Assembly: GCA_017513285.1 (NCBI GenBank)
Contig: JAFXGD010000046.1
Coordinates: forward strand, 1 to 58,296
Source: Alphaproteobacteria bacterium
Lineage (GTDB): Bacteria; Pseudomonadota; Alphaproteobacteria; Rs-D84
DNA: 58,296 nucleotides
Reading direction: 5' to 3'
In this document: positions 21,871-35,913 of the stretch, one piece after another
Position numbering within the stretch: position 1 is the stretch's first letter
Layout of the letters: the number at the start of each line of letters is the position of its first letter
Translations under genes and position numbers: made by a program
Notes under the pieces: model-generated
Told to the model about the DNA's origin: nothing
The model's input: only the letters and a program-made list of their open reading frames with translations
The model's database searches: none

Positions 21871-22196
21871 TATTTTGCCTTTACGTGACTTATTAATGCA
21901 CGATTTGTGCGCAGTTTTTGCGCCCGTGCAATTACTTGTTGTGCGTGTGCTTGGTCTTGTTCGGTTGGCAAAACCAATCTTAAGATAGGCGTATTATTCA
22001 AATGTGTATATGACACATTTTCTTTTACCATTCTTTCTGAAATATATTTAACAAACGTACAGTTTGCCGGATTCATGCAATTTGGAAAATCGTTGCATTT
22101 TTCACAACCATAGAAAGAAATAAAAGATACCTTTCTTGGTTCTGCTAACTTTTCATAACCGATAATTTTAACTTTTCTTTTAATATTATTTATCAT
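21870..22196 (-). CDS. Hypothetical 108-aa protein
   Basis: Start and stop overlap metG and queH, suggesting translational coupling. Contains CEKC...C.....C; no family recognised. Confidence 0.45.
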   Translation of the reverse strand: MINNIKRKVKIIGYEKLAEPRKVSFISFYGCEKCNDFPNCMNPANCTFVKYISERMVKENVSYTHLNNTPILRLVLPTEQDQAHAQQVIARAQKLRTNRALISHVKAK

Positions 22197-24175
22197 TTGT
22201 ATTCTGATCCTATTTTTGTATTAGTGTCTAATTCAACTATATTTTTACCAATGTCCCCCTGCCCCAGTTCGCCTGCACTGCACAGCATTCCGAACGATTC
22301 AACGCCCGCCACGGCACGTGGTGTAATGGGTTTTTTATTGCCCGGCAAAACGCAACCCACGGGTGCCAAAACACTGTGCATTCCGGGTTTTACGTTTGGT
22401 GCGCCGCACACGATTTGTACGTTTTTGTCTGCACCATAATCAACCATTAATACGTGCAAATCTTCACGTGTGGGATGTTGTTCGACGGACACAACTTTTG
22501 CCACGACCGGTACAGGCACATTTTTCTTTGGTGTGTATTTTTCATTCAATTGTGCAACCCGTTCATCGTCGATACGACCGAACAAGTTTTCCGGCACAAC
22601 AAATTCTGCGCCATTTGCGATACGGCGTTCAAAAGATTTTGGCCAAGACAAATCTTTTTTATCTGCAAAAATATTTTGCATTTTTTCTGCTGCACCCGGT
22701 ATAACCGGTGCAGACACCCGTGCAAACAAATCAATCATTTGCATACATGTGTTCAAGCATTTTCCCGCCCCATCTAAATCGCCGTTTTTCACCATGGTCC
22801 ATGGTTCGCATTTTGTCATATATTCATTACCAATTGCGTACAGTCCACGCAACGCCGCAATTGATGCACGGAATTCGCATGCATCCAAAGCGTTGGTTAA
22901 TTCTGACAATTTCTGATTAATTTCTTGTTCTAAATCCGGTTCGATATCACCTGCGGCGGGTACTTTGTTACCAAAATTTTTCTGGGTTAATTTGCAAACG
23001 CGTGATACAAAGTTCCCCAACATACCATTTAAATCTTTGTTAACGATTTCTGCGAAACGGTTGATTGTAAAGTCTGTATCATCGGTTTCTGGTGCCGATG
23101 CGATTAATGCGTACCGCCAATAATCTGCGGGCAATTCGCGAATTGCATCATTCAAGAATATACCATTGCCGGTTGATTTTGAAATCTTTGAACCATTAAA
23201 GTTCAAGAAATTCATACCCTTTAATACATCAACGGTTTTCCAATTATCATTCATTGCCAATTCTTGGGCCGGAAAGAATATAGAATGGAAAGACACATTG
23301 TCTTTACCCATAAATTGTGTGTAATGTACATCATCACCACCATGCCACCAATCGGCCCAATTTTCATTTGCGGCCTGTGAAATAGAAACATAACCCCATG
23401 GTGCATCAAACCAAACATAGAAAACTTTGTTTTCATATCCGGGCTTGTTTACGGGAATTCCCCATTTTAAATCACGTGTAATTGGGCCGTCACGCAAACC
23501 TTCGCTTAACCATTTGTTTGCGATTGCCAATGCGGTTTTTGACCACCCGCGACGTGAATCAATCCATTTGCGCAGTGCGTCTTGCATTGCGCTGTATTTA
23601 AAGTACAGGTGTTTTGTTTCCCGCATTTCAACCGGTGAATCTGGGGTGATTGCACTGTGTGGATTAATTAATTGTTCCGGTTCCAAAGTTGCACTGCATT
23701 TATCGCATTCGTTTCCATATGCTTTGTCGTGACCACACTTTGGGCAAATTCCAATAACAAATCGGTCGGCCAAGAACATTTTGTCTTTTATTGAATATGG
23801 TTGAACGGATGTTTTTTCAACCAACATATCTTGTTCTTCTAAACGTTTGAATAATTGTTGGATTAATTTTTCTTGGCGTTCTGTGTGTGTGCGCCCATAC
23901 ATATCAAAAGACAAATTAAAGTCACGGGCCGATTGTTCGTGTGCAACGCGATATTTATCGACATATTCTTCAACGGACAAACCTTCCTTCATTGCGCCAA
24001 CTTCACTGGTTGTGCCGTGTTCGTCGGACCCACAAACGTACAGTACATCACGCCCCATTGCCCGACAGAAACGTGCGTAAATATCACTGGGTAACCAACA
24101 TCCAATCAGATGTCCAATATGCAGATTATTGTTTACATATGGTAACGCAGAAGTAATTAAATATTTTTTTGCCAT
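22193..24175 (-). CDS. metG: Methionine--tRNA ligase
   Basis: HIGH-type (NLHIGHL) and KMSKS-type (KISKS) motifs, a zinc knuckle (CPKCGH...CDKC) and a C-terminal tRNA-binding domain. Confidence 0.95.
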   Translation of the reverse strand: MAKKYLITSALPYVNNNLHIGHLIGCWLPSDIYARFCRAMGRDVLYVCGSDEHGTTSEVGAMKEGLSVEEYVDKYRVAHEQSARDFNLSFDMYGRTHTERQEKLIQQLFKRLEEQDMLVEKTSVQPYSIKDKMFLADRFVIGICPKCGHDKAYGNECDKCSATLEPEQLINPHSAITPDSPVEMRETKHLYFKYSAMQDALRKWIDSRRGWSKTALAIANKWLSEGLRDGPITRDLKWGIPVNKPGYENKVFYVWFDAPWGYVSISQAANENWADWWHGGDDVHYTQFMGKDNVSFHSIFFPAQELAMNDNWKTVDVLKGMNFLNFNGSKISKSTGNGIFLNDAIRELPADYWRYALIASAPETDDTDFTINRFAEIVNKDLNGMLGNFVSRVCKLTQKNFGNKVPAAGDIEPDLEQEINQKLSELTNALDACEFRASIAALRGLYAIGNEYMTKCEPWTMVKNGDLDGAGKCLNTCMQMIDLFARVSAPVIPGAAEKMQNIFADKKDLSWPKSFERRIANGAEFVVPENLFGRIDDERVAQLNEKYTPKKNVPVPVVAKVVSVEQHPTREDLHVLMVDYGADKNVQIVCGAPNVKPGMHSVLAPVGCVLPGNKKPITPRAVAGVESFGMLCSAGELGQGDIGKNIVELDTNTKIGSEYK

Positions 24176-24196
24176 ATTGATTTGTCCTTTTTTTAC

Positions 24197-24222
24197 AAAA
24201 AAACAGACGCCAACGGGGCGTC
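24197..24222 (-). terminator. Orphan hairpin plus T-run just outside the island's left repeat
   Basis: GACGCC-AACGG-GGCGTC preceded on the plus strand by A7, giving a minus-strand terminator with no gene directly upstream. Plausibly the pre-insertion tRNA-Val terminator. Confidence 0.5.
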
Positions 24223-24315
24223 CATTGAAACCCGTTGAAACCAGATTAAAGATTAATTGTGCATTCGCATATTATTCCCAGATTTTGATTATGTTATTTA
24301 CCATCTTGGCAAATA

Positions 24316-24335
24316 ATGGTGGGTGGTATTGGACT
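24316..24335. repeat. att repeat (distal copy of the tRNA-Val 3' end)
   Basis: ATGGTGGGTGGTATTGGACT, identical to 32139-32158, followed by a degenerate T-arm-like sequence. Confidence 0.9.
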
Positions 24336-24495
24336 TTCTCCACGACCTAAAAAGTCCCAGGAATCTCCCACTTTTTTCATTTTTCCAGTACCTTTTTTCG
24401 TGGTTCCGGTACCAACGACAGCCACTCAGTGTTTTCGTAGGCAAAGTATATATTGAAAAATGGCGAATGTCAATAGAATGCCCTAAATTTTGTTC

Positions 24496-24568
24496 TAGTA
24501 AGTACTTTTTTAGTACATACTGAACCTTAGTATGTACTGATGATAGTAAGTACTTTTTAGTAAATACT
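24496..24568. repeat. Direct and inverted repeat cluster near the island end
   Basis: TAGTAAGTACTTTTT(T)AGTA(C/A)ATACT occurs twice (24496-24521, 24544-24568). Also a perfect 10-bp hairpin AGTACATACT/AGTATGTACT (24512-24538). Confidence 0.8.
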
Positions 24569-24693
24569 TCCAAATTTGCGCGCTTTATACAAGGTGGTTG
24601 ATTACGATCGGGGGCTTTTTACTTGGTTATTCCCCGCGATATATTTCCGAAGATTTTTTATAGTTCTAATCATCTGTATACGGTAGAAAAGTA

Positions 24694-24999
24694 ATGAATT
24701 TGACAGAACTAACAGTAAAAAAACTAGATCGCGACAAAGATATATTGGTTGGTACGTTTAGTTTGTGTTTTGAGAAAATGCTGCATGTTGACGGCTTTAG
24801 GGTATATTACACTTCTGCACCGCGGCATCAGTATTCAGTGTCTTTTCCGTCTAATTTTACAGTAGATAGCCCAAAAGTAAGAAAGCAAATCGTAAGTAAC
24901 ATCCTAAGACAAGTAGATCAAGAAATCGCGCGCCAAGAGATCAAACAGTACGAATTGAATGATAGTAAAATCATAACAACGCAAGAAAATAAAAAATAA
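24694..24999 (+). CDS. SpoVG-like small nucleic-acid-binding protein (tentative)
   Basis: 101-aa ORF. MNLTELTVKKLDRDKDILVGTFSLCFEKMLHVDGFRVY...SVSFPS parallels SpoVG MEVTDVRLRRV...AIASITLD..FVVHDIRVI...FVAMPS. Recognised by eye from memory. Confidence 0.4.
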   Translation: MNLTELTVKKLDRDKDILVGTFSLCFEKMLHVDGFRVYYTSAPRHQYSVSFPSNFTVDSPKVRKQIVSNILRQVDQEIARQEIKQYELNDSKIITTQENKK

Positions 25000-25031
25000 C
25001 AGTTCTATTATTTGAAAAGATAAAGAATCAG

Positions 25032-25143
25032 ACATTAGTGAAAGACAAATAGACTGATTTTTTACCTGGATACATTCACAAGATTTGCATAGAGTTTCAC
25101 TAATGTAACCCCACCAAGTTTTTGTGAATGGCTTGATGGGGTT
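25032..25143. other. Interlocking inverted repeats in an ORF-free region (candidate origin or structured RNA)
   Basis: 12-nt perfect IR 25032-25043/25095-25106; 9-nt IR 25073-25081/25122-25130; 12-nt IR with 1 mismatch 25107-25118/25132-25143. Confidence 0.6.
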
Positions 25144-25507
25144 TCTTCGTAGTCCGTAAAATCCCCCAAGCTACTATTTTTTGAACAATCCTGAACCATA
25201 GAGCCACGTTTGCTTAGCCGGCTTTTATATCGCATCGTGTCTCTGTAATTTACTCAGACAAAACTATGGGGTAAAAACGATGTAGACACAATAATTTTTC
25301 TATCTTATTGCCACCAAGCTTATAAAGGGATCCACCGCGGCAAAAGATATACAAACACTGATTAGCTGGCACTCTATAAGGGAATCATTGCGGCTCGGAA
25401 TCAGTAGAAATCTAAGAAAAATAGCATACAATTTCCACGTTGATGCAAGTTCTTTTTTTATTTTATTTCCCCCTAAAGTATAACACATAAAGCATAAGGA
25501 CTAAATA

Positions 25508-26116
25508 ATGACAGAAGAAGAATTACAAAGACAACTAGAATCTATACAACAAACTATATACAATAAAATTCCGCACGATACATCCACCTATTTTATAACT
25601 ATCACTTTACCTTATGAGTTCAAGACGTATGATATTGGTTGCTTCGCGGATAGAATGAAATATCTCTTGTCTAAATTTATAAAACACCTATTGAATTGTA
25701 AAAGACTGTGGATAGATAGTGTATATGATTTTGATGCCTTCTTTGAAAATGTAGACCAAACTGAACCATGGCATCTACACTTACTTGGAACATTTATAGA
25801 TCAAACAACGGGCGCGCAATTACCAAAAAACCTTATAGAAGAAACGATGCAAAAGGCTAGTTACAGATTCAAACAACATTACGGACTAGACAGAGAAATA
25901 AACTATAAAATAAAGCTTGTTCCTTACTCTGATATTCAAACTGTTATAGGCTACTGCACAAAAGAATTGATCCAAGGTAATGTGTTGTGTTCTGATCGTA
26001 TTTATTGCCCCAAGACCTTATTCAACCCCTTACCAAAACAACCAACTAAAAAGAAAAACCTAACCAAAACCCAAAGGAAAATTCGCAAGATAAAAAAACT
26101 GTGTGGGCTTAGCTAA
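25508..26116 (+). CDS. HUH-endonuclease Rep-like protein
   Basis: 202-aa ORF with an AAGGA SD. Motif I FITITL (aa 29-34), motif II HLHLL (aa 89-93), motif III YCTKE (aa 149-153), and a Lys-rich tail. Confidence 0.5.
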   Translation: MTEEELQRQLESIQQTIYNKIPHDTSTYFITITLPYEFKTYDIGCFADRMKYLLSKFIKHLLNCKRLWIDSVYDFDAFFENVDQTEPWHLHLLGTFIDQTTGAQLPKNLIEETMQKASYRFKQHYGLDREINYKIKLVPYSDIQTVIGYCTKELIQGNVLCSDRIYCPKTLFNPLPKQPTKKKNLTKTQRKIRKIKKLCGLS

Positions 26117-26166
26117 TATCCCGCGGTCAACTCCCATAAATATCAGCTAAGACACACAAACAACAA

Positions 26167-26352
26167 CTATAAATACCGCCTAATACCATCCGCTGTAAAA
26201 AGAATTGTCTCATAGCTATTACCGCGGACTATAACATCTCCCCCTTGGTAATAGGCTGTTTTTGCATTTTTGACTGTATAGAGATAATTTCCAGACAGAC
26301 TACGAATTATCACATCTTTGCCTACCCACTCAAAACCAACACCTATACTCAT
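26167..26352 (-). CDS. Hypothetical 61-aa protein
   Basis: Its start overlaps the stop of the upstream serine recombinase gene (ATGA). Beta-rich; no family recognised. Confidence 0.4.
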   Translation of the reverse strand: MSIGVGFEWVGKDVIIRSLSGNYLYTVKNAKTAYYQGGDVIVRGNSYETILFTADGIRRYL

Positions 26353-26921
26353 TTTTTATCCTTTTCTGGTTTTTTCATATAGTTATAAACGGAAGCTCTA
26401 CAAAGTCCAAATTTTTCAGCAACTTCTGTTATATGCATTTTCTTTTTGCGAACCAACTCTTTCAATTCTGTTATATCATCATCATCCAACTTATTTTTTC
26501 CACCTTTGAATTTTCCGCGGGCTTTGGCTATTGCGATTCCTTCTGCTTGGCGATTTTTTATCAATGCTCTCTCAAATTCCGCGATACTACCCAAAATTTG
26601 TAACATCAACGTACTCATTGCATTATCTTTCCCTGGTTCAAATCGCAAATTTTCTTTCACAAACACCACTGAACAATCTTTATCTGTGATTTCTTTTACC
26701 AATGACTGCAAATCAAACAAGTTTCTAGCCAATCTGTCTAAACTGTGGCATGTGATTTCATCTCCTGGTCTCAAATTACCCAACATAGCTACCAATTCAG
26801 GACGTTCTCTATCCTTACCGCTACATTTGTCAGTATACACGCGGTCAAAGCCTTTTTCGTCCAAAGTTTGCCTGTCGGTGTTTTGGTAAACTGACGACAC
26901 GCGGCAATATAAGAATTTCAT
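26349..26921 (-). CDS. Small serine recombinase (resolvase/invertase family)
   Basis: 190-aa ORF with a catalytic N-terminus (YCRVSSVYQNTDRQ), LDRLARN, AEFER and a C-terminal HTH. Confidence 0.85.
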   Translation of the reverse strand: MKFLYCRVSSVYQNTDRQTLDEKGFDRVYTDKCSGKDRERPELVAMLGNLRPGDEITCHSLDRLARNLFDLQSLVKEITDKDCSVVFVKENLRFEPGKDNAMSTLMLQILGSIAEFERALIKNRQAEGIAIAKARGKFKGGKNKLDDDDITELKELVRKKKMHITEVAEKFGLCRASVYNYMKKPEKDKK

Positions 26922-26934
26922 TTTTTTATCCTTT

Positions 26935-27013
26935 TGTCTAACCTAACTCTTTATATCTGTTTAGATTATACTGAATCGTGTCTAAAAGTCAAGAAAAAAA
27001 CTTAGTTTAGACA
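26935..27013. promoter_or_regulatory. Cluster of TGTCTAA-type half-sites (candidate recombinase binding / res-like site)
   Basis: TGTCTAACC (26935), inverted AATCTAAAC (26959-26967), TGTCTAAAA (26979) and inverted TGTCTAAAC (27005-27013). They form two inverted pairs upstream of the recombinase gene. Confidence 0.4.
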
Positions 27014-27242
27014 TTTTTTATTTGTATATTCTAAGTGTACCCATTTTGGACAATGCAAAAAACCATAAAAAAGCCTGTTTTATACATGCGCGCAGGATCT
27101 GTTTATAAAACATATGATAAATCGCTTATAATCGGACTATAGCGCGCTTTTTTCTCAAACACTACAAACTATACCAGAAAGCCGTTTTTTGATAAACTGG
27201 GGCAAATTTTATATTGCTTGATTTTTGTCGCGGTATTCAAAC

Positions 27243-27266
27243 AAAAACGTCCAGAAGGGACGTTTT
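27243..27266 (-). terminator. Intrinsic terminator of the methylase-nuclease operon
   Basis: ACGTCC-AGAAG-GGACGT with flanking A/T runs, 5 nt after the nuclease stop codon. Confidence 0.65.
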
Positions 27267-27270
27267 GTTA

Positions 27271-28470
27271 TTACTTATCGTGATTTTGCTTTGCTGTTAT
27301 ATCCGCGTGGCAATCGTGGCATAACATCAGACAGTTATCTATTGTCGTTTCGCCACCATCTATAAAGGCTACTTTATGGTGCGCTTCTAGTTCAGAAAAC
27401 GGCATTTCGCGTCCGCAACGTCCACCACATCTTTTACCTTGGTTCGCATAAGCCTGACGTTGTTGTTTATCACTGAATATACGATGCCATATCAATGTAC
27501 GATCTCCAGACAACACGTATTCATAAAAGCCACTCTTTTTCAACCCGTCAGGATCAACATTGTACAGGTCAAACAATCGTTTCAATTCGGCTTCTAATAC
27601 CGCGGGGTCGTACTGATTATTACCGTATTTGTTATATAATGTTCCCCAATCAATACTTTTCATTTCCTTACGATACTCTGGGAATGTTGTTTTTACCCAT
27701 TCTATGACAGACTTGTAATAAGTCCAAAGTTCATTTGCGTTTTCATCAAAACGATGTTGTGCCATGTAATCTTTTATCTCTGGATATTGATCTGATTTAG
27801 ATATGCGCCACCGTAATGCCAATTCTAACAATTCTTGACGATTTGCCGCGACAGCATCCTTATTTACCAACATGTGCCGATCATCATTATCGCAAAAAGA
27901 TATGCTCAATGCTTTGTTATTGGTTTTTTTAGAGAAATACTGTTTGGCATCTGATAACCATGATCCTGTATAATTCGCATTCAGCAATTCTTGTTCAGTC
28001 ATCTGTTTGCCGGCAATGTTTATAGTATGAAACCATTCTAATTTTTCATCATCCGTTCCATTACATAAATACACTTGCAACCGATAATCTAAAATCTCTT
28101 CCTTTTTCTCTGGCGATAATCCTTCAAAAGATTGATTGTTTTTCCCATTGAAATTGATTGCTATTGGGTTGCCATGTCCGTCATCGTTAGTAATAAATTG
28201 ACAGATTGAAATAATGCGTTGCTGCCCATCAATTACTTCGTATGTACCATCTGGATTGATTGCCCAATACATACTGTTCAGTGGTAATCCATTATAAACT
28301 GACATCATAACGCGATCACGATCATTTGGTTCATATACGAACGCGCGCTGATATGCTGGTCTTACATTCAAAGTTCCATGATAGGCAACAACACCGTTAT
28401 CGCCACTATCTTTATAATTTTTTACCAATTCACGAATAGTTATAACTGGTGTTGTTATTGTCATAGTCAT
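27271..28470 (-). CDS. DUF262 (ParB/GmrS-like) plus HNH nuclease
   Basis: 399-aa ORF with IDGQQRI near the N-terminus and a C-terminal HNH finger (HHKVAFIDGGETTIDNCLMLCHDCH). Confidence 0.75.
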   Translation of the reverse strand: MTMTITTPVITIRELVKNYKDSGDNGVVAYHGTLNVRPAYQRAFVYEPNDRDRVMMSVYNGLPLNSMYWAINPDGTYEVIDGQQRIISICQFITNDDGHGNPIAINFNGKNNQSFEGLSPEKKEEILDYRLQVYLCNGTDDEKLEWFHTINIAGKQMTEQELLNANYTGSWLSDAKQYFSKKTNNKALSISFCDNDDRHMLVNKDAVAANRQELLELALRWRISKSDQYPEIKDYMAQHRFDENANELWTYYKSVIEWVKTTFPEYRKEMKSIDWGTLYNKYGNNQYDPAVLEAELKRLFDLYNVDPDGLKKSGFYEYVLSGDRTLIWHRIFSDKQQRQAYANQGKRCGGRCGREMPFSELEAHHKVAFIDGGETTIDNCLMLCHDCHADITAKQNHDK

Positions 28471-28472
28471 TA

Positions 28473-29435
28473 TTATGCTCCTTGCTTTTTACGAATGATT
28501 ATTCTTCTGTACAATGCCTTTCCATTTAGATCTGGACCCCTGCCGCGCCACTCAACTCTATGATCATCTAAACCTAAAATTTCAAATTGTTCAGGATTAT
28601 ATTTATGCAAAAACGAAATAGGAACTCCCATTAGTCCATCATAATCCATTGGCATATTTCTAACAGTTCCAACTTCTATAGCATCATAATTATCGTACTT
28701 TGGGTACATTGATTCAAAGCCATGATATGTTTTCCCTGTTTCTAGTTTTTCGTTTCGTTTACTATGCGGCAAATTAGTAAACCATACAACACCAGCAACA
28801 AAAGCATATTTTACACCATTTTCTATTTTATGATATTGCTCATAATCGTCCGGTACCGCGAACCATCTGTTTGAACTGTCCATTGTCATGCCAAGCCATA
28901 CTTTATTTGCTTTTATCAATGGAAAAAATTCTTTATACGTTATTGCATTTTGATTTCCGATGATTATAAATTTCTTTTTGTATTCCATGAGCTGAGCCAC
29001 ATATTCCCTGAACAGCGAGAACGGTGGATTTGTTATTACTATGTCAGCCTGTTTCAATAATTCTATACATTCCGCGCTACGAAAATCCCCATCGCTTTTT
29101 AGTGGTATTTCTTCTATATCTTCACTGCATATAATGCCATCGCCAGTATTATCTTTGTTCAAAATATACATCGTTGATTTTTTGCCGGCTTCGTAGTGTG
29201 TGGCGATAACTTTTTTGATTCCGAATGCTTGAAAATTGTCCGCGAGATATTTTATAAAATTTGATTTAGGTGTTCCTTTGCCAATACCGTAATGATCATC
29301 ACAATTACAGTATATGACTTTGCCTTTGAAATACTTTGCATAGTTTACAAGCTCTTTTTTTATATCGTCATAGCTTGTATAAAATTCATCTTTCTTTGCT
29401 GTATTCGCGACAATAAGCCCTGTATTTTTTCTCAT
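28473..29435 (-). CDS. N6-adenine DNA methyltransferase, M.EcoRI-like family
   Basis: DEFYT, YCNCDD, GDGDFRS, ITNPPFSLFREY and GVPISFL blocks. Start set to ATG 29435 with an AGGA SD, whereas the track starts at an upstream TTG. Confidence 0.75.
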   Translation of the reverse strand: MRKNTGLIVANTAKKDEFYTSYDDIKKELVNYAKYFKGKVIYCNCDDHYGIGKGTPKSNFIKYLADNFQAFGIKKVIATHYEAGKKSTMYILNKDNTGDGIICSEDIEEIPLKSDGDFRSAECIELLKQADIVITNPPFSLFREYVAQLMEYKKKFIIIGNQNAITYKEFFPLIKANKVWLGMTMDSSNRWFAVPDDYEQYHKIENGVKYAFVAGVVWFTNLPHSKRNEKLETGKTYHGFESMYPKYDNYDAIEVGTVRNMPMDYDGLMGVPISFLHKYNPEQFEILGLDDHRVEWRGRGPDLNGKALYRRIIIRKKQGA

Positions 29436-29682
29436 ATTGTATTTCCTGGTATTCAAAAATTTGTTGTAAAATCTTCCCTGGAAATACTTACATAAACCAA
29501 CGTTTTGTTATGGATTGCGCGCTTTCAAGTGAGCAATCTATTTGAATATGAAAGAATGCCTGTTTTCTGGGATTTATAAATTTGGACTTTTTATAATCTA
29601 ACCATTTCAAACAAGCTAAAAATATGTTGATTTTATCGTTCTATAAAAAAACAAGGATTTTTACAACATAAAGGTATAAAAA

Positions 29683-30282
29683 ATGGCTATAATTGGGTAC
29701 ATCCGCGTGTCTTCAAACAAGCAATCATGTGAACATCAAAAACACGAACTAACACAATTCGCGGCACAACAAAATATCAATATAGATCAGTGGGTAGAAG
29801 AAACAATATCATCACGAAAGCCGCTAAAGAAACGTAAACTAGGCGAATTATTAGAAACAATACAACCAAATGATATTCTAATCGCGGCAGAAATCTCGCG
29901 GCTTGGGCGTTCTTTGTTAGAAGTTATGCATATTTTGGAAATTTGCCTGAATAATAATTGTCAGGTGTGGACGTTGAAAGAACATTATAGGTTAGGAAAC
30001 GATATTCAATCAAAGGTTATGGCTTTCGCTTTTGGTCTTTCTGCAGAGATAGAACGTAACCTTATAAGTCAAAGAACAAAAGCATCTCTGGATAACATTC
30101 GCGCAAAAGGTAAACGATTGGGTAGACCTGTTTCTGCTCAATCTAAAAAACTAAAATTAGCTAAAAATAAAAAACGCATCCGGAAATTACTAGATGCGGG
30201 AATATCAAAATATAAGATTGCGAAATTGATGGAAGTACAACCTATGACTATCACAAGGTTTGTTTCGCGAATGGGGTGGTAA
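29683..30282 (+). CDS. Small serine recombinase (resolvase/invertase family), second copy
   Basis: 199-aa ORF with GYIRVSSNKQ, ISRLGRS, SAEIERNLISQRT and a C-terminal HTH. Only distantly similar to the 26349-26921 product. Confidence 0.85.
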   Translation: MAIIGYIRVSSNKQSCEHQKHELTQFAAQQNINIDQWVEETISSRKPLKKRKLGELLETIQPNDILIAAEISRLGRSLLEVMHILEICLNNNCQVWTLKEHYRLGNDIQSKVMAFAFGLSAEIERNLISQRTKASLDNIRAKGKRLGRPVSAQSKKLKLAKNKKRIRKLLDAGISKYKIAKLMEVQPMTITRFVSRMGW

Positions 30283-30306
30283 GATGTGTTTTTCCTACCA
30301 CCCCAT
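30271..30306. terminator. Hairpin between convergent recombinase and integrase genes
   Basis: ATGGGGTGGTAAG / CCTACCACCCCAT, with 11 of 13 positions paired. Confidence 0.5.
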
Positions 30307-30311
30307 AAAAC

Positions 30312-32006
30312 CTAATCAATGTTGATGTGTGGTTTGTATTTTCCGCGCTTAGTGCTGATCTTTTCTGGATTGATATAAAGATCTGGGATTATTTTTTTCC
30401 AATAATCAAGATGTAAAATTTCTTCTGGATACTCAATTCTATCAACAGCTTCTTTGATTTCTTCTGTAGAGTATTTTAGATAGTTTTTTTGCCGTATAGT
30501 GCTTCCTTCCCAACCAATAATGTCATCAACAATGGAATCGTCAATCTTTAGTCTTTTTGTGTGTTTGCTTATTGTGTCGCGGAAAGAATGAAAAGAGTAT
30601 TTATTACCATCACGTGATACGATTCCTAACTCATTCTGTATAAAGCGTTCCCATGGTGCCATAAATTTTTTAGCAGGATCGCCCTTTGAACTAGCTGCGC
30701 GGTCAAATATAAAATCTGTCTCTTGCGCACCCATTTTTTTCTGTCGTGCCTTTATCATATCTAAAAAACCAAAATCTAATAATTGTTTTGCAATAGCTAA
30801 TTTTCGTTCACTAGCTTTATTTTTTCTGTTTTTCTTGGTATGGTTTTTACGGAACCAAATACAATGAACACCATCTTTTTCAATAAAATCTCCGAACTGC
30901 AAAGTGACAGCTAAATTTGTTCTTGAACCAGAAAACAATGCAACCAAACATGCTAAAAATTCATCAGGATGTGTTTTGAAGAAATCATATTTTGGGTCAA
31001 AAATTTTTGCTAATTGTTCTTCGGTAAACGTGCCAAACTCTTCTTTTTCGCCCGCTGGTGTTTCTGGTAACCTTTCTGTGTAATAAAGTAATTTTTCCCC
31101 TTTGTAAAATTCTGGTTCTTTCTTATGAGCCTGCTTTATAACCTTACGCAATACGTCCATTGTTTTGTTTTTAGAATCATTGTTTAGATTGGTTCTGCTA
31201 GTTAGCGCTTCAACTATTTTCTTTATCACGTTTTCATTGTTCAATTTAGAATAATCATCGTCCAGAGATAGATTTACCGGTTTCAATAATGTTGCTAATA
31301 TCCGCGGGAATCTCTCTTTGATTGTATCACTATTACGTTTCAGAGATTCTGTTAGAATTTCTCTTATGGTATTTTGGGGCATTTGCATGCTTGGATATTG
31401 TGGCATGTATTGTTTGTTGATTGCGGGCATTACCGGTATCATAGTTTGTGTGCCGTATACCATTTGTTCCCAAGACGTGTATTGTGGTGTAAATAATTGT
31501 TGATGTTGCTTGAATTGATACTGTATCGCTGGGTTGGTCTTTGCGCGAATAAAATGGATCAATATGTGAAGCTTGTTGCGTTCTAATTCTGCAGCCATGC
31601 CCGCGGAACATCTTTCTGTCAATGTAGCGCTGTTTCCAGTTTTGCTTAGTCTTAGTATTTCTTCACATTTGAAATATTTATCAATAGCTTGAGTGTCCGA
31701 TAAATTTTTATATTCGTTTTCTATAATGCGCGCTCGTTCTTCATCGGTTTGTGCAATTTGATTTAGATATTGATCAATAGTTACTGGTTTAGTGGTATCC
31801 AGTTCCACATTATTTATTATTTGCATAGAAAGCTCCTTTTTCACTAATGCGAGCCTTTGGATAGCCAAATTTAGATCGCTTGTTCCTAGGCTCTTTTTTA
31901 TAGAACTGAACTTTCCATCACTTTTTTTGAAAGAAATGCGAAAATAATAAATTTTTTTTCGTAAAACTAAGTTCTTTATATATACATGTCTCACTTTTGG
32001 TACCAC
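30312..32006 (-). CDS. Tyrosine recombinase / integrase (unusually long)
   Basis: 564 aa with a GTG start. Has an N-terminal arm-binding-like segment (YYFRISFKK..GK..SIKKSLGTSD). C-terminal catalytic residues are SGSRTNL (R), HSFRDT (HxxR) and GWEGST...NYLKY (W...Y). Confidence 0.85.
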   Translation of the reverse strand: MVPKVRHVYIKNLVLRKKIYYFRISFKKSDGKFSSIKKSLGTSDLNLAIQRLALVKKELSMQIINNVELDTTKPVTIDQYLNQIAQTDEERARIIENEYKNLSDTQAIDKYFKCEEILRLSKTGNSATLTERCSAGMAAELERNKLHILIHFIRAKTNPAIQYQFKQHQQLFTPQYTSWEQMVYGTQTMIPVMPAINKQYMPQYPSMQMPQNTIREILTESLKRNSDTIKERFPRILATLLKPVNLSLDDDYSKLNNENVIKKIVEALTSRTNLNNDSKNKTMDVLRKVIKQAHKKEPEFYKGEKLLYYTERLPETPAGEKEEFGTFTEEQLAKIFDPKYDFFKTHPDEFLACLVALFSGSRTNLAVTLQFGDFIEKDGVHCIWFRKNHTKKNRKNKASERKLAIAKQLLDFGFLDMIKARQKKMGAQETDFIFDRAASSKGDPAKKFMAPWERFIQNELGIVSRDGNKYSFHSFRDTISKHTKRLKIDDSIVDDIIGWEGSTIRQKNYLKYSTEEIKEAVDRIEYPEEILHLDYWKKIIPDLYINPEKISTKRGKYKPHINID

Positions 32007-32102
32007 CTGAATGTTTCATGGTTGTTTTTTATGCTGGAAAACATTGAGATGGCGGGAATCTAAGAATGATCAAATTTCGCGGTTCGGTACCATGGATGAT
32101 TC

Positions 32103-32131
32103 AAAAAATAAAAAATCCCAGATAACTGGGA
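32103..32131 (-). terminator. Hairpin plus T-run immediately downstream of tRNA-Val (island-borne)
   Basis: TCCCAG-ATAA-CTGGGA with an A-run on the plus strand (T-run on the minus strand). Confidence 0.5.
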
Positions 32132-32138
32132 AAAATTC

Positions 32139-32158
32139 ATGGTGGGTGGTATTGGACT
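32139..32158. repeat. att repeat (within the tRNA-Val 3' end)
   Basis: Identical to 24316-24335. Confidence 0.9.
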
Positions 32159-32216
32159 CGAACCAACGACCTTTACGATGTCAACGTAACGCTCTAACCA
32201 ACTGAGCTAACCACCC
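32140..32216 (-). tRNA. tRNA-Val (GAC)
   Basis: Reverse complement GGGTGGTTAGCTCAGTTGGTTAGAGC-G-TTACG-TTGACAT-CGTAA-AGGTC-GTTGGTTCGAGTCCAAT-ACCACCC-ACCA. Confidence 0.92.
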
Positions 32217-32292
32217 AAGCGACAACTATTATAACAATAAAATTTAGATTTGCAAATAAATTATACTGTATAATTATTTTACTTTTGTGCAT

Positions 32293-32321
32293 AAAAAACA
32301 CCGGCAAACGCCGGTATTTTT
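32293..32321 (-). terminator. Intrinsic terminator after accC (repeat family, inverted orientation)
   Basis: AAAAAACACCGGCAAACGCCGGTATTTTT. Confidence 0.65.
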
Positions 32322-33666
32322 ATTGGTTTTTCAGGTATGATTCCAACCACTTGTTATCGAATTTTAATTGTTTGACATCTTTGTTTGCCAACAGTTTTTT
32401 CTGCAAAGGAATAGTTGTTTTAACACCTTCGATAACAAATTCGTCCAACGCACGTGTTGCCCGCATAATGCATGCCGGTCTGTTTTGTGCATGCACAATC
32501 AGTTTTGCAATCATTGAATCATATGTTGGTGGAATTGTGTATCCGGTGTAAACAGCACTGTCCACACGTACGCCCAACCCGCCCGATGGCGCATACAGTG
32601 ATATTTTACCTGCGCATGGTGTAAAATCATCGGGGTCTTCGGCATTTATACGAAATTCGATTGCATGTCCATTTGGAATAACATTGGACTGCGTATATCC
32701 CAACTTTTCACCTGCGGCCACACGAATTTGTTCACGCACCAAATCTACGCCATAAACCATTTCTGTTACAGGATGTTCCACCTGTAATCTGGTATTCATT
32801 TCCAAGAAATAGAATTTACCATCTTCGAACATAAATTCGAAAGTCCCGGCATTTGTATATCCCATTTTTTTGGCGGCAGTCTTACAAATTTCAATCATAT
32901 CGTCACGTTGTTTTTGTGACAGTATCGCAGCGGGGCATTCTTCCATAACTTTCTGATTTCGTCTTTGCAGTGAACAATCACGTTCACCAAAGATTACGAC
33001 ATTACCATGTTTATCGCCCAACACTTGGAATTCTATATGTCTGGGATGTGTTAATAATTTTTCTATATACAGTGTATCATCGCCGAATGCAGACTTTGCT
33101 TCATTTTTTGTTAATTGATATGCTTCGGCCATTTGTTCTGCATCCATAACCGGCCGCATGCCACGTCCGCCACCACCGGCCGCCGCCTTTAACATAACGG
33201 GGTAGCCGATTTTTTCTGCGATGTGTAAAGCGCTGTCCACAGAATCGACGGCGCCATCTGAACCGGGGACGACGGGCAATCCGCATTCAATGGCGGTCTT
33301 TTTTGCATTAACCTTATCGCCCATTTTTTCAATCATGTCTGGCTTTGGTCCAATCCAAATCATTCCATGTTGTTCAACTTTACGTGCGAAATCTGCCCGT
33401 TCGGACAAAAATCCATATCCCGGATGAATTGCATCGGAATTGGTCAACAGTGCCGCCGTCAATATTGCAGATTCATTTAAATAAGAATCCCGTGCCGCCG
33501 CCGGTCCGATACAGACGGATTCGTCGGCCAATTGCACATGCATTGCATCACGGTCCGCCACAGAATATACGGCAACCGTTCGAATACCCATATCACGACA
33601 TGCGCGAATAATTCTTAATGCGATTTCGCCCCGATTTGCGATTAAAACTTTTTTAATTTGTGACAT
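32320..33666 (-). CDS. accC: Acetyl-CoA carboxylase biotin carboxylase subunit
   Basis: 448-aa ATP-grasp protein starting KVLIANRGEIALRIIRAC, with GGGGRGM and EMNTRLQVEHPVTE. Confidence 0.95.
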   Translation of the reverse strand: MSQIKKVLIANRGEIALRIIRACRDMGIRTVAVYSVADRDAMHVQLADESVCIGPAAARDSYLNESAILTAALLTNSDAIHPGYGFLSERADFARKVEQHGMIWIGPKPDMIEKMGDKVNAKKTAIECGLPVVPGSDGAVDSVDSALHIAEKIGYPVMLKAAAGGGGRGMRPVMDAEQMAEAYQLTKNEAKSAFGDDTLYIEKLLTHPRHIEFQVLGDKHGNVVIFGERDCSLQRRNQKVMEECPAAILSQKQRDDMIEICKTAAKKMGYTNAGTFEFMFEDGKFYFLEMNTRLQVEHPVTEMVYGVDLVREQIRVAAGEKLGYTQSNVIPNGHAIEFRINAEDPDDFTPCAGKISLYAPSGGLGVRVDSAVYTGYTIPPTYDSMIAKLIVHAQNRPACIMRATRALDEFVIEGVKTTIPLQKKLLANKDVKQLKFDNKWLESYLKNQ

Positions 33667-33674
33667 ATTATATA

Positions 33675-34115
33675 TTATTCGATAACGATTAAAGGTTGGT
33701 CAAATTCAACGGCTGCGCCATCTGTAATCAGAATTTGTTTCACGACCCCGTCTTTATCTGCCTTGATTGGGTTAAAAGTTTTCATTGCTTCGACCAATGC
33801 GACTGTATCGCCGACTTTGACGGTTGCGCCCACTTCGATAAAGTGTTCTGCGCCGGGTTCTGGCGCCAAATAAACCACCCCGACCATTGGCGATTTTACC
33901 ACATGACCTGAAATGTTTGCATCGCATTTGGCGGCTTGTTTACATTCGGTCAAAGTTGCCGTTGGTACGGCGACCGCTGCGGTGGCTTGCTGTTTTGATA
34001 AATGAATATGTTTACGGTATACGCCGAACAAGAATTGGCGTTCTAAATCTAACTCTGTAATTCCCATATCGTCCATGATTTTAGACATAGATTCAACGGT
34101 TGCACGAAAAGACAT
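33675..34115 (-). CDS. accB: Biotin carboxyl carrier protein
   Basis: C-terminal biotinyl domain with EAMK. Directly upstream of accC. Confidence 0.9.
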
Positions 34116-34178
34116 TTTTAATCCTTATGTTTAATTTTGTCTGGCATAAATAAAATTCTATCATAATCCCGCCCATTG

Positions 34179-34415
34179 TCAAGGCACAGGGTCGTAACCG
34201 AACCCGCCACCGGGCCTGCAACGTGATATACGTCGTATTCCCAACCATATACCACGCACAATACCGTGCTTTTGTATTGCGATGCGTGTGTATTCGCTGC
34301 AACTGGGGGTAAAACGGCATGTATTTTGTCCGCCGATAATTGGTGATATTGTACATTGATATGCCCGCACGCATGCGCATGCCGCCCTTTGCGCCCAAGA
34401 TTGATTATTTTGCAT
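34179..34415 (-). CDS. yidD: Membrane protein insertion efficiency factor YidD
   Basis: 78-aa ORF with YQ..ISP......CRF.PSCSEY and a GYDPVP end. Overlaps the rnpA stop. Confidence 0.85.
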
Positions 34416-34773
34416 TTTTATACAGTTTTTTTAAATAATGCAGTGCTTTTTTCATTGCCACCCGTCCATCTGTACGATTGGCGGTTAATATATCACGACG
34501 CACCACAAATACATAGTCCCATTCACGCACCAACAAATTTTCATTGGCGCAAATCCAATCACGTATTAATCGTTTGGCCCGATTTCTGTCCACAGCGTGT
34601 TTAAAAGTCTTTTTTGTGACGATTAAACCGTATCGTGGGTCGTCGGGGAATTTTGCATTTTTTGCCCGCACCAAAAAGTATGCACAGCGTGCAGATGGGT
34701 CGGAATCCCCCATTGCGAAATCTGCATGTTTTTTTATTGTATCACGTATCATAGTGTCCCCATAATAGCACAA
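34405..34773 (-). CDS. rnpA: RNase P protein component
   Basis: Basic 122-aa ORF with the RNR-type motif ([13 protein letters not shown]). The true start may be the internal Met at about 34752. No rpmH is visible upstream. Confidence 0.8.
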
Positions 34774-34863
34774 TATCCGTTAAGTCAAATAAATTTGTTG
34801 TCGCATCTTGATTTTTTGCCATACGTGATTTATAGTGCAAAAAACAAAATTATGGGGAAATAA

Positions 34864-35910
<1,047 letters not shown>

Positions 35911-35913
<3 letters not shown>

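Follow-up and report, generated by a model that had tools for sequence, protein, structure and literature searches.

In actinomycete elements of the pSAM2 type, an integrase targets the 3' end of a tRNA gene, and after excision the circle is replicated by a rolling-circle Rep. Tyrosine integrases paired with a protein of the rolling-circle replication (RCR) initiator type have also been described in integrative mobilizable elements (IMEs), where the initiator may be a relaxase, a replication initiator, or both, and some of these IMEs carry Type II restriction-modification systems (PMC5704250). Here we analyze a segment of the 58,296-nucleotide contig JAFXGD010000046.1 (assembly GCA_017513285.1), which comes from an alphaproteobacterium of the order Rs-D84 and is referred to as the window. 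We consider it highly probable that positions 24316-32158 are an integrative mobile element that was inserted by its own tyrosine integrase at the end of the single tRNA-Val(GAC) gene. The island is a real and probably active integrative element, and it probably works like an IME with a rolling-circle Rep, a kind of element that is already known. The host group of the related loci is Candidatus Enterousia (Alphaproteobacteria), an uncultured gut lineage of the order Rs-D84 with genomes below about 1 Mb, and the published description of this lineage makes no mention of mobile elements, integrases, or restriction (PMC12306168). An earlier note, made from the letters of this DNA, had read the segment as an insertion island, and this is supported by empty sites in related genomes, by a repeat that is unique, and by sharp borders in composition.

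Insertion at the 3' end of tRNA-Val(GAC)

The insertion site comprises the following features, in which att denotes the attachment sites, and related loci and genomes are referred to by L and G numbers, respectively.

24192-24226, minus strand: hairpin and T-run, displaced original terminator of tRNA-Val (terminator scan, 24226-24202)
24316-24335, unstranded: attR core, a 20-bp duplicate of the tRNA-Val 3' end (repeat search)
24336-24693, unstranded: integrase-distal attP arm, 84-99% conserved in L015 and L022
30312-32006, minus strand: tyrosine integrase, 564 amino acids (PHROG_1 integrase, 1.3e-16)
32106-32131, minus strand: island-supplied hairpin and T-run, new terminator of tRNA-Val (terminator scan, 32131-32116)
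32139-32158, unstranded: attL core, the rebuilt 3' end of the tRNA, CCA included (repeat search)
32140-32216, minus strand: intact tRNA-Val(GAC) (ARAGORN; Rfam tRNA, 71.4 bits)

The 20-mer ATGGTGGGTGGTATTGGACT that ends the tRNA occurs in two exact copies in the window, against 0 expected from 100 shuffles, and the distance of 7,823 bp between them delimits an island of about 7.8 kb. There are no further copies with up to 2 mismatches in the window and two copies only in the whole assembly of 1,096,719 bp, so the perfect direct repeat recorded in the earlier note stands and is not a common dispersed repeat. ARAGORN found no other gene with a GAC anticodon in the genome. Past the left 20-mer the sequence reads TTCTCCACGACCT, while the same place in the tRNA reads CGAACCAACGACCT. 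This imperfect continuation of the T-arm, which had been noticed before, is real, but it is kept in L015 and L022 and is part of the attP arm of the island rather than the decayed host copy it had been taken for. Besides this tRNA-like continuation (24336-24348), the arm has a 15-nt direct repeat with copies at 24496 and 24544, and just outside attR the identity to L015 and L022 falls to about 72%.

A 16-nt sub-core, CCAATACCACCCACCA, is common to the att repeats of L022, L027, L031, and L032. In L075, a contig from Logan, the host tRNA has TATTGGGCT at attL where attR has TATTGGACT, a G/A difference that locates the crossover within CCAATACCACCCACCA. The L075 contig (7,873 bp) was also considered as an excised circle and rejected, as its ends are host flank and tRNA without terminal overlap and it is therefore an integrated copy. 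The same idea was dropped for L017 (7,990 bp), whose coordinates relative to L016 indicate that it extends past attR into the metG flank.

Both flanks are housekeeping, as had been proposed: a Pfam search placed metG on the left (22193-24175, minus strand) and accC followed by accB on the right. In genomes of the same genus tRNA-Val lies directly after metG, and the empty site that the earlier note had suggested looking for was seen in at least six of them (G014, G013, G021, G001, G007, and G017). These share with the left flank of the window a terminator hairpin of the GACGCCAACGGGGCGTC type and the intergenic motif CCCGT...AAGATTA...CATTCGCAT, which are followed by an intact tRNA 3' end and no insert. 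The hairpin left orphaned outside attR is the same one that lies between tRNA-Val and metG in G014, G013, G021, and G017, and because it follows the tRNA in these empty-site genomes, 24192-24226 is the original tRNA terminator, as had been suspected. The replacement hairpin beside attL, also noted earlier, is present, and its stem is kept through paired changes in related islands (CCCAGTTATCTGGG, CCCGGTTAGCCGGG, and CCCGGATTTCCGGG). In four further genomes (G024, G009, G002, and G011) the terminator hairpin immediately abuts the tRNA. In G015 a pair of att cores lies at tRNA-Val (L069, G015:C15, 760-960), 182 bp from each other and enclosing a hairpin that resembles the island-supplied terminator; this duplication was probably left behind by an island since lost, with the same tRNA as a recurrent target.

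The integrase gene stands 133 bp from the tRNA, which bears out the earlier placement of a tyrosine recombinase beside it. Tyrosine recombinases share the catalytic pattern R-K-H-R-H/W-Y. Across 16 aligned integrases of this family, R362, K392/K395, H473, R476, W499, and Y509 are invariant, and we take these residues to be the canonical catalytic set, present in full. The protein has a long low-complexity middle and a faintly DUF6538-like N-terminus, without a recognised arm-binding domain. Its family is small: a word-seeded search in a database of 5.8 billion proteins gathered 26 clusters. A scan of genome contigs with the single protein returned no relatives, while a profile scan succeeded and showed that the family is confined to gut and rumen metagenome-assembled genomes of Alphaproteobacteria.

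Comparison with these relatives shows that the island has moved between species recently. The window and L015 are 95-100% identical across the island in 200-column steps, save for one patch of 64%, and L016, L057, and L075, with copies at the same tRNA in other Enterousia hosts, are likewise 95-100% identical to the window island. In contrast, the flanks of the window and L015 are 70-74% identical directly left of attR and 74-83% past the tRNA, and their MetG proteins share 71.6% identity, so that an island of 95-100% identity sits between flanks of roughly 70-75%, with the break exactly at the att sites. Loci L015-L021 have integrases that are 99% identical and carry the same island. The island is found again in L057, a contig from the Joint Genome Institute (JGI), at 95.9% identity over 7.9 kb, and L075 has the same gene set with a Rep that is 97% identical; the left flank differs in both. 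Distribution within the genus is patchy, with family members in 16 of 80 other genomes. Nearly all homologues of the integrase come directly after a tRNA gene, which may be that for Val(GAC), Val(TAC), Lys, Ser, Leu, Asp, or Gly.

Some further observations were made at these loci. The divergent patch (28478-28663, about 190 bp) covers the 3' end of the methylase gene and the methylase-nuclease junction, is 64% identical to L015 amid surroundings of 90-100%, and includes a junction that differs in L015, where the two genes overlap. In L030 (1416-7705), which lies at tRNA-Val(TAC), the tRNA 3'-end sequence recurs at 1579 and 7694, which suggests tandem or nested islands, i.e., accretion. To the right of the island, the 3.6-kb accC-accB-yidD-rnpA-mreB block (32293-35912 in the window) runs one way in the window and L031 and the opposite way in L015, L027, and L032, and in L022 it is partly rearranged. 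The orientation of DNA matches suggests that both arrangements occur among the empty-site genomes, so the rearrangement looks independent of the island.

Backbone proteins and a candidate origin

Using tBLASTn with the proteins of the window, we found that islands at tRNA-Val(GAC) follow one order: integrase, cargo with or without an invertase, resolvase, a 61-amino-acid open reading frame (ORF), Rep, orf101, and attR. The part of this order between the cargo and attR holds the following features.

24694-24999, plus strand: SpoVG-like ORF (orf101), 101 amino acids (Pfam matches of orthologues, weak fold match)
25000-25507, plus strand: ORF-free conserved region upstream of Rep, candidate origin with a nick site or origin of transfer (oriT) (conservation)
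25508-26116, plus strand: Rep-class HUH (histidine-hydrophobic-histidine) endonuclease, 202 amino acids (motif and fold evidence)
26167-26352, minus strand: 61-amino-acid ORF overlapping the resolvase stop codon (59-100% amino acid identity in relatives)
26349-26921, minus strand: small serine recombinase of the resolvase/invertase type, 190 amino acids, backbone (Pfam Resolvase, 1.2e-33, and HTH_7)
26922-27063, unstranded: res-like and promoter region upstream of the resolvase (alignment of five islands)

The 202-amino-acid protein has the motifs FITITL, H89-x-H91, and Y149CTKE, in that order, and FITI.LP, H89-x-H91, and Y149-C-T-K-E are invariant in the protein and eight orthologues. In its AlphaFold model (predicted local distance difference test score, pLDDT, of 83) the tyrosine lies in a helix (140-154) after the HUH strand, and the best fold matches in the Protein Data Bank (PDB) are all HUH nucleases, namely the nuclease domain of AAV Rep, RAYT, and the TnpA proteins of IS608 and ISDra2. 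An HMMER scan of 1.84 billion representatives returned 66 relatives only. Among ten distant relatives that were scanned (E 1e-7 to 1e-18 to the profile), six have matches to PF23343 (REP_ORF2-G2P) that in three cases exceed the cut-off, and there are weak matches to Phage_GPA as well. The invariant motifs, the fold, and the link to PF23343 through relatives together lead us to assign the protein to the Rep-class initiators as a new subfamily, in agreement with the HUH Rep-like gene of the earlier note. The Rep of the window is of a short, 202-amino-acid type that is about 50% identical to a 277-amino-acid type.

Upstream of this gene, the 508-bp stretch between orf101 and Rep is conserved at the nucleotide level across nine islands; over 25230-24995 it is about 77% identical to L030, while the two Reps are only about 48% identical. 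A hairpin formed by 25021-25031 paired with 25054-25064 shows compensatory changes in 11 of 11 pairs, 94.8% of cells are paired, and 0 of 500 shuffles reach the observed covariation score. The hairpin loop, CATTAGTGAAA, recurs inverted about 70 nt downstream. The region resembles a nick site or origin and is a candidate for one; an Rfam scan reported tRNA only, with no RNA family matching the conserved non-coding region.

It is possible, if clearly less probable than a role in replication, that the HUH protein is purely a relaxase and that the island is a classical IME without replication of its own, hitching on the type IV secretion system (T4SS) of the host or of a co-resident element. In many IMEs the relaxase is indeed a protein of the RCR-initiator type (PMC5704250), the conserved hairpin might serve as an oriT, and near-identical copies across species show that transfer is efficient. 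The genome also has a VirB4 homologue (G000:C38:3281-5710), but its neighbours are housekeeping genes, neither a relaxase nor a coupling protein was seen next to it, and it may therefore belong to an effector system. The order of the motifs, with HUH before the tyrosine, and the distant link to PF23343 are typical of replication initiators, and a resolvase in the backbone fits the resolution of multimers of a replicating circle. The contig with the VirB4 homologue also carries an ordinary P4-type integrase of 392 amino acids (C38:17072-18250; Arm-DNA-bind_3 and Phage_integrase).

The resolvase was found in every tRNA-Val(GAC) island examined, and it also matches the PHROG DNA invertase family (3e-54). 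In the 142 bp upstream of its gene, TGTCTAA/TTAGACA inverted repeats flank TTGACT-16-TATAAT, a promoter match of 11/12, and this res-like site is probably autoregulated. The 61-amino-acid ORF lies beside the resolvase in L015, L022, L027, L031, and L032, and searches of family and domain libraries gave no match for it.

For orf101, which had been called SpoVG-like, Pfam SpoVG (PF04026) matches three of the four family members scanned (best E 6.5e-5), but all three are orthologues and the copy in the window has no match of its own. Its top fold match is SpoVG (2ia9), a weak one at E 0.12 with a model pLDDT of 61, and its profile gave chance-level matches only against PDB sequences. Orthologues are 55-63% identical in islands whose integrases are only about 40% identical; tBLASTn detected orf101 in the L015 and L022 islands and did not detect it in L027, L031, and L032.

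Exchangeable cargo and sequence composition

The cargo slot lies between the integrase and the resolvase, and in the window it contains the following features.

27064-29480, minus strand: Type II restriction-modification pair, swappable cargo (Pfam, PADLOC)
27271-28470, minus strand: restriction endonuclease, DUF262 (GmrSD_N) and HNH (PADLOC REase_II, 2.6e-100, full length)
28473-29456, minus strand: methyltransferase of the M.EcoRI family (Pfam EcoRI_methylase, 1.3e-112; PADLOC MTase_II, 1.1e-105, full length)
29683-30282, plus strand: Mpi-like serine invertase, 199 amino acids (Pfam Resolvase, 2.5e-32)

Domain searches thus recovered the accessory genes listed in the earlier note between the repeats, including two serine recombinases, a methylase, and a DUF262-HNH nuclease. 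The methyltransferase and the endonuclease are predicted to form a Type II restriction-modification system. GAATTC is absent from the island, but we estimate that about 2.7 sites would be expected from base composition, so its absence is uninformative about the specificity of the methyltransferase. The invertase scores 269.0 bits against NCBIfam NF009949, for which the cut-off is 272, making it a close relative rather than a certified equivalog.

The content of the slot differs between islands. L015 and L031 have the same cargo as the window, i.e., invertase, methyltransferase, and DUF262-HNH nuclease, while L022 has an invertase and a 1640-amino-acid Type ISP enzyme in place of the restriction-modification pair. 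In L027 and L032 a BigA-like surface protein of about 1270 amino acids fills the whole interval from integrase to resolvase, and no invertase is present. An island at tRNA-Lys (L023) carries Slam, outer membrane protein, and autotransporter genes. Homology to L022 and to L027 ends at the same base, 27063, which marks the left border of the slot, and homology to L022 restarts at 29481. The modules are mosaic. Compared with the window, L022 has an integrase of 79% amino acid identity, an invertase of 95%, and a resolvase-to-orf101 block of 93-99%, and L031 combines an invertase and restriction-modification genes of the window type (89-96% amino acid identity) with a resolvase and Rep of the L027 type. 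These alignments indicate a family with a conserved backbone and an exchangeable slot in which cargo has been swapped. In L023, L027, and L030 an ORF of 60-62 amino acids, convergent with the integrase, stands at the position that the invertase has here and may code for a small regulator or a directionality factor.

A search for inverted or direct repeats bracketing the restriction-modification cassette found no convincing pair and no invertible segment. The best pair has 25-nt arms that are 80% complementary, and it overlaps the resolvase stop and start of the 61-amino-acid ORF at one end and the start codon of the invertase at the other. A reading of the cassette as invertible was dropped for want of convincing inverted repeats around it. 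This bears on a broader alternative, in which the cassette, through its two divergent serine recombinases, would be a mobile or invertible unit nested in the island, with cargo captured or exchanged site-specifically at the res-like site rather than by homologous recombination between islands. Homology to two islands does end at 27063, about 50 bp outside the array of inverted repeats, the Mpi-like invertase co-occurs only with restriction-modification cargo, and L022 is mosaic. We nevertheless think this alternative unlikely, as no convincing repeat pair brackets the cassette, the breakpoint falls outside the palindromic sites, and homologous recombination through the conserved backbone of islands that share one att site would explain the mosaics equally well.

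The composition of the island sets it apart from its surroundings. Its GC content is 0.354, compared with 0.422 in the rest of the window (0.34-0.37 in windows inside, 0.40-0.46 outside), and both the GC and the k-mer profiles shift exactly at the att sites, which gives precise borders to the AT-richness that the earlier note had judged by eye. The richness in CGCG that it described is likewise borne out: the island has 45 sites (5.8/kb) and the other 50 kb have 25 (0.5/kb). A first-order model predicts 10.7 ± 3.4 sites for the island and a second-order model 22.9, and for the other 50 kb the expectation is about 184-208 depending on the model, so both enrichment in the island and strong avoidance by the host contribute. 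Within the island the sites are spread evenly across genes, spacers, and all codon phases. The enrichment is found in the window, L015, L022, and L031, and there is none in L027 or L032. Genome-wide, the host avoids both CGCG (observed-to-expected ratio of 0.27) and GATC (0.20), while the island has 27 GATC sites against 30 expected and does not avoid them. A search of the host genome for methylases that could explain the CGCG and GATC biases recovered three N6/N4 methylases (C81, C84, and C68) and none of the C5 (PF00145) or Dam (PF02086) type. Avoidance of GATC is seen in the flanks of all related loci, and that of CGCG is specific to this host.

Two other tetranucleotides are missing from the island, which has 0 GGCC (9 expected) and 0 TTAA. 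The island lies within a TTAA-free stretch from 24253 to 32364 (8,111 bp) that no other in the genome exceeds, the next measuring 2,263 bp. Pooling five tRNA-Val(GAC) islands gives 3 TTAA against 230 expected and 0 GGCC against 47. Both depletions are common to the tRNA-Val(GAC) islands, those with differing cargos included (window, L015, L022, L027, L031, L032, and L057), while their hosts have 3-7 TTAA per kb and family members at other tRNAs are without the signature. We read the purge of TTAA and GGCC as restriction avoidance by a horizontally moving element. A bolder proposal, which we consider decidedly improbable, is that the islands are a platform for cargo capture in which the resolvase and res-like site would take in and swap cassettes, such as restriction-modification systems and giant adhesins, in an integron-like manner, and that spread as double-stranded DNA through populations that cut TTAA and GGCC would explain the purge. 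If it were true, adaptive genes would reach an otherwise streamlined symbiont genome of about 0.9 Mb mainly through these islands.

Several contigs of the assembly are compositionally odd. C56, C7, C69, C46, and several short contigs of G000 have, over their whole length, a GC content of 0.47-0.52 and normal CGCG (about 5/kb), and some are rich in GGCC and others have zero; in this they differ from the rest of the bin. They could represent contamination, another strain, or other mobile DNA.

Proposed mechanism and relation to known elements

Taken together, the genes and sites suggest how the element may operate. The integrase would recombine the last 16-20 nt or so of tRNA-Val(GAC) with an attP site that includes a duplicate of the tRNA 3' end, and integration would rebuild the tRNA, supply it with a new terminator, and leave the displaced tRNA end as attR. 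We infer that the island can excise to a circle, after which the HUH protein would most likely nick the hairpin region. The nick might start rolling-circle replication of the circle, single-stranded DNA (ssDNA) transfer by way of a helper system, or both, and the resolvase would keep the circles monomeric. The SpoVG-like protein may be a DNA- or RNA-binding member of the backbone, and the restriction-modification pair, accompanied by the invertase, would provide defence and probably addiction.

A number of results weigh against this interpretation. From the integrated copy we expected an attP junction of GGGAAAAATTC, core, and TTCTCCACGACC, and an attB of host flank, core, and CGAACCAACGACC. 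A search of JGI metagenomes for the attP junction returned only another integrated copy (L057), IMG/VR gave no match, and no repaired attB was seen in the same species. No excisionase was identified in the island, and a Pfam scan found no island-encoded transfer or T4SS genes. The integrase scores 25.2 bits against PF00589, under the cut-off of 27.1. Neither the Rep nor its orthologues match Pfam, the Rep profile found chance-level matches only among PDB sequences, and its fold matches, which reach a probability of 0.99, have modest template modelling (TM) scores of about 0.4.

Another reading takes the island for a degraded prophage or satellite of an ssDNA phage (inovirus- or microvirus-like) that has kept its integrase, a gpII-like Rep, and a few small genes. 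Distant relatives of the Rep match PF23343 and weakly Phage_GPA, which are replication families of ssDNA phages, and PHROG_1 is the best family match of the integrase. We give this explanation a very slim chance, because neither this nor any related island has capsid, coat, morphogenesis, or lysis genes, the att junction has no match in IMG/VR, and a compact backbone kept across diverged islands points to a complete functional design rather than to decay. Finally, the plasticity of the region, in which the 3.6-kb housekeeping block beside the tRNA is rearranged among species, might suggest that the island is ancestral and was deleted in relatives, but we dismiss this as next to impossible given the att duplication, the distinct composition, the patchy distribution, the different left flanks in L057 and L075, the empty sites, and the drop between species from 95-100% identity in the island to about 72% in its flanks.

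The island at tRNA-Val(GAC) shows that reduced genomes such as those of Enterousia still exchange DNA across species. The vehicle is a compact and self-contained element with one cargo slot, which is filled now by phage defence, now by surface proteins. What is new is a subfamily of tyrosine integrases with defined att sites and a small family of HUH Reps with a candidate origin. The island also provides a clean natural case of restriction-site purging, with neither TTAA nor GGCC in 8 kb of DNA at 35% GC. As this kind of element is already known, we regard the value of the finding as moderate rather than fundamental.

Among known systems, the pSAM2-type elements resemble the island in joining an integrase for tRNA 3' ends to a Rep of the rolling-circle type. 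They differ in belonging to another phylum and in the FtsK/TraB-like translocase, which Pfam did not find in the seven largest ORFs of the island, where no Xis was found either. As in P4-type tRNA islands, the integrase gene lies beside the tRNA, attP contains the tRNA 3' end, the direct repeats measure 16-20 bp, and the tRNA is restored; unlike theirs, the integrase has 564 amino acids, falls below the cut-off of PF00589, and lacks a recognised arm-binding domain. Pipolins (PMC11551731) and P4-like satellites, which are similar in concept, are also integrative, have direct repeats at tRNAs, and combine a core with an exchangeable slot that often holds restriction-modification genes. The islands described here are smaller (7.8-10.3 kb), are without pPolB or phage-satellite genes, and carry cargo that alternates between defence systems and giant surface proteins. 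The described IMEs (PMC5704250) come from Firmicutes, whereas the host here is an uncultured alphaproteobacterium with a reduced genome. The Rep falls outside all Pfam families, Rep_trans, Rep_2, and Viral_Rep among them, the backbone also includes a resolvase and a SpoVG-like gene, and mobilization by a helper is putative. The island nevertheless shares with these IMEs its small size, a tyrosine integrase whose target, the 3' end of a conserved gene, stays functional, the lack of a transfer apparatus of its own, restriction-modification cargo, and a Rep-class HUH protein encoded near a structured site.

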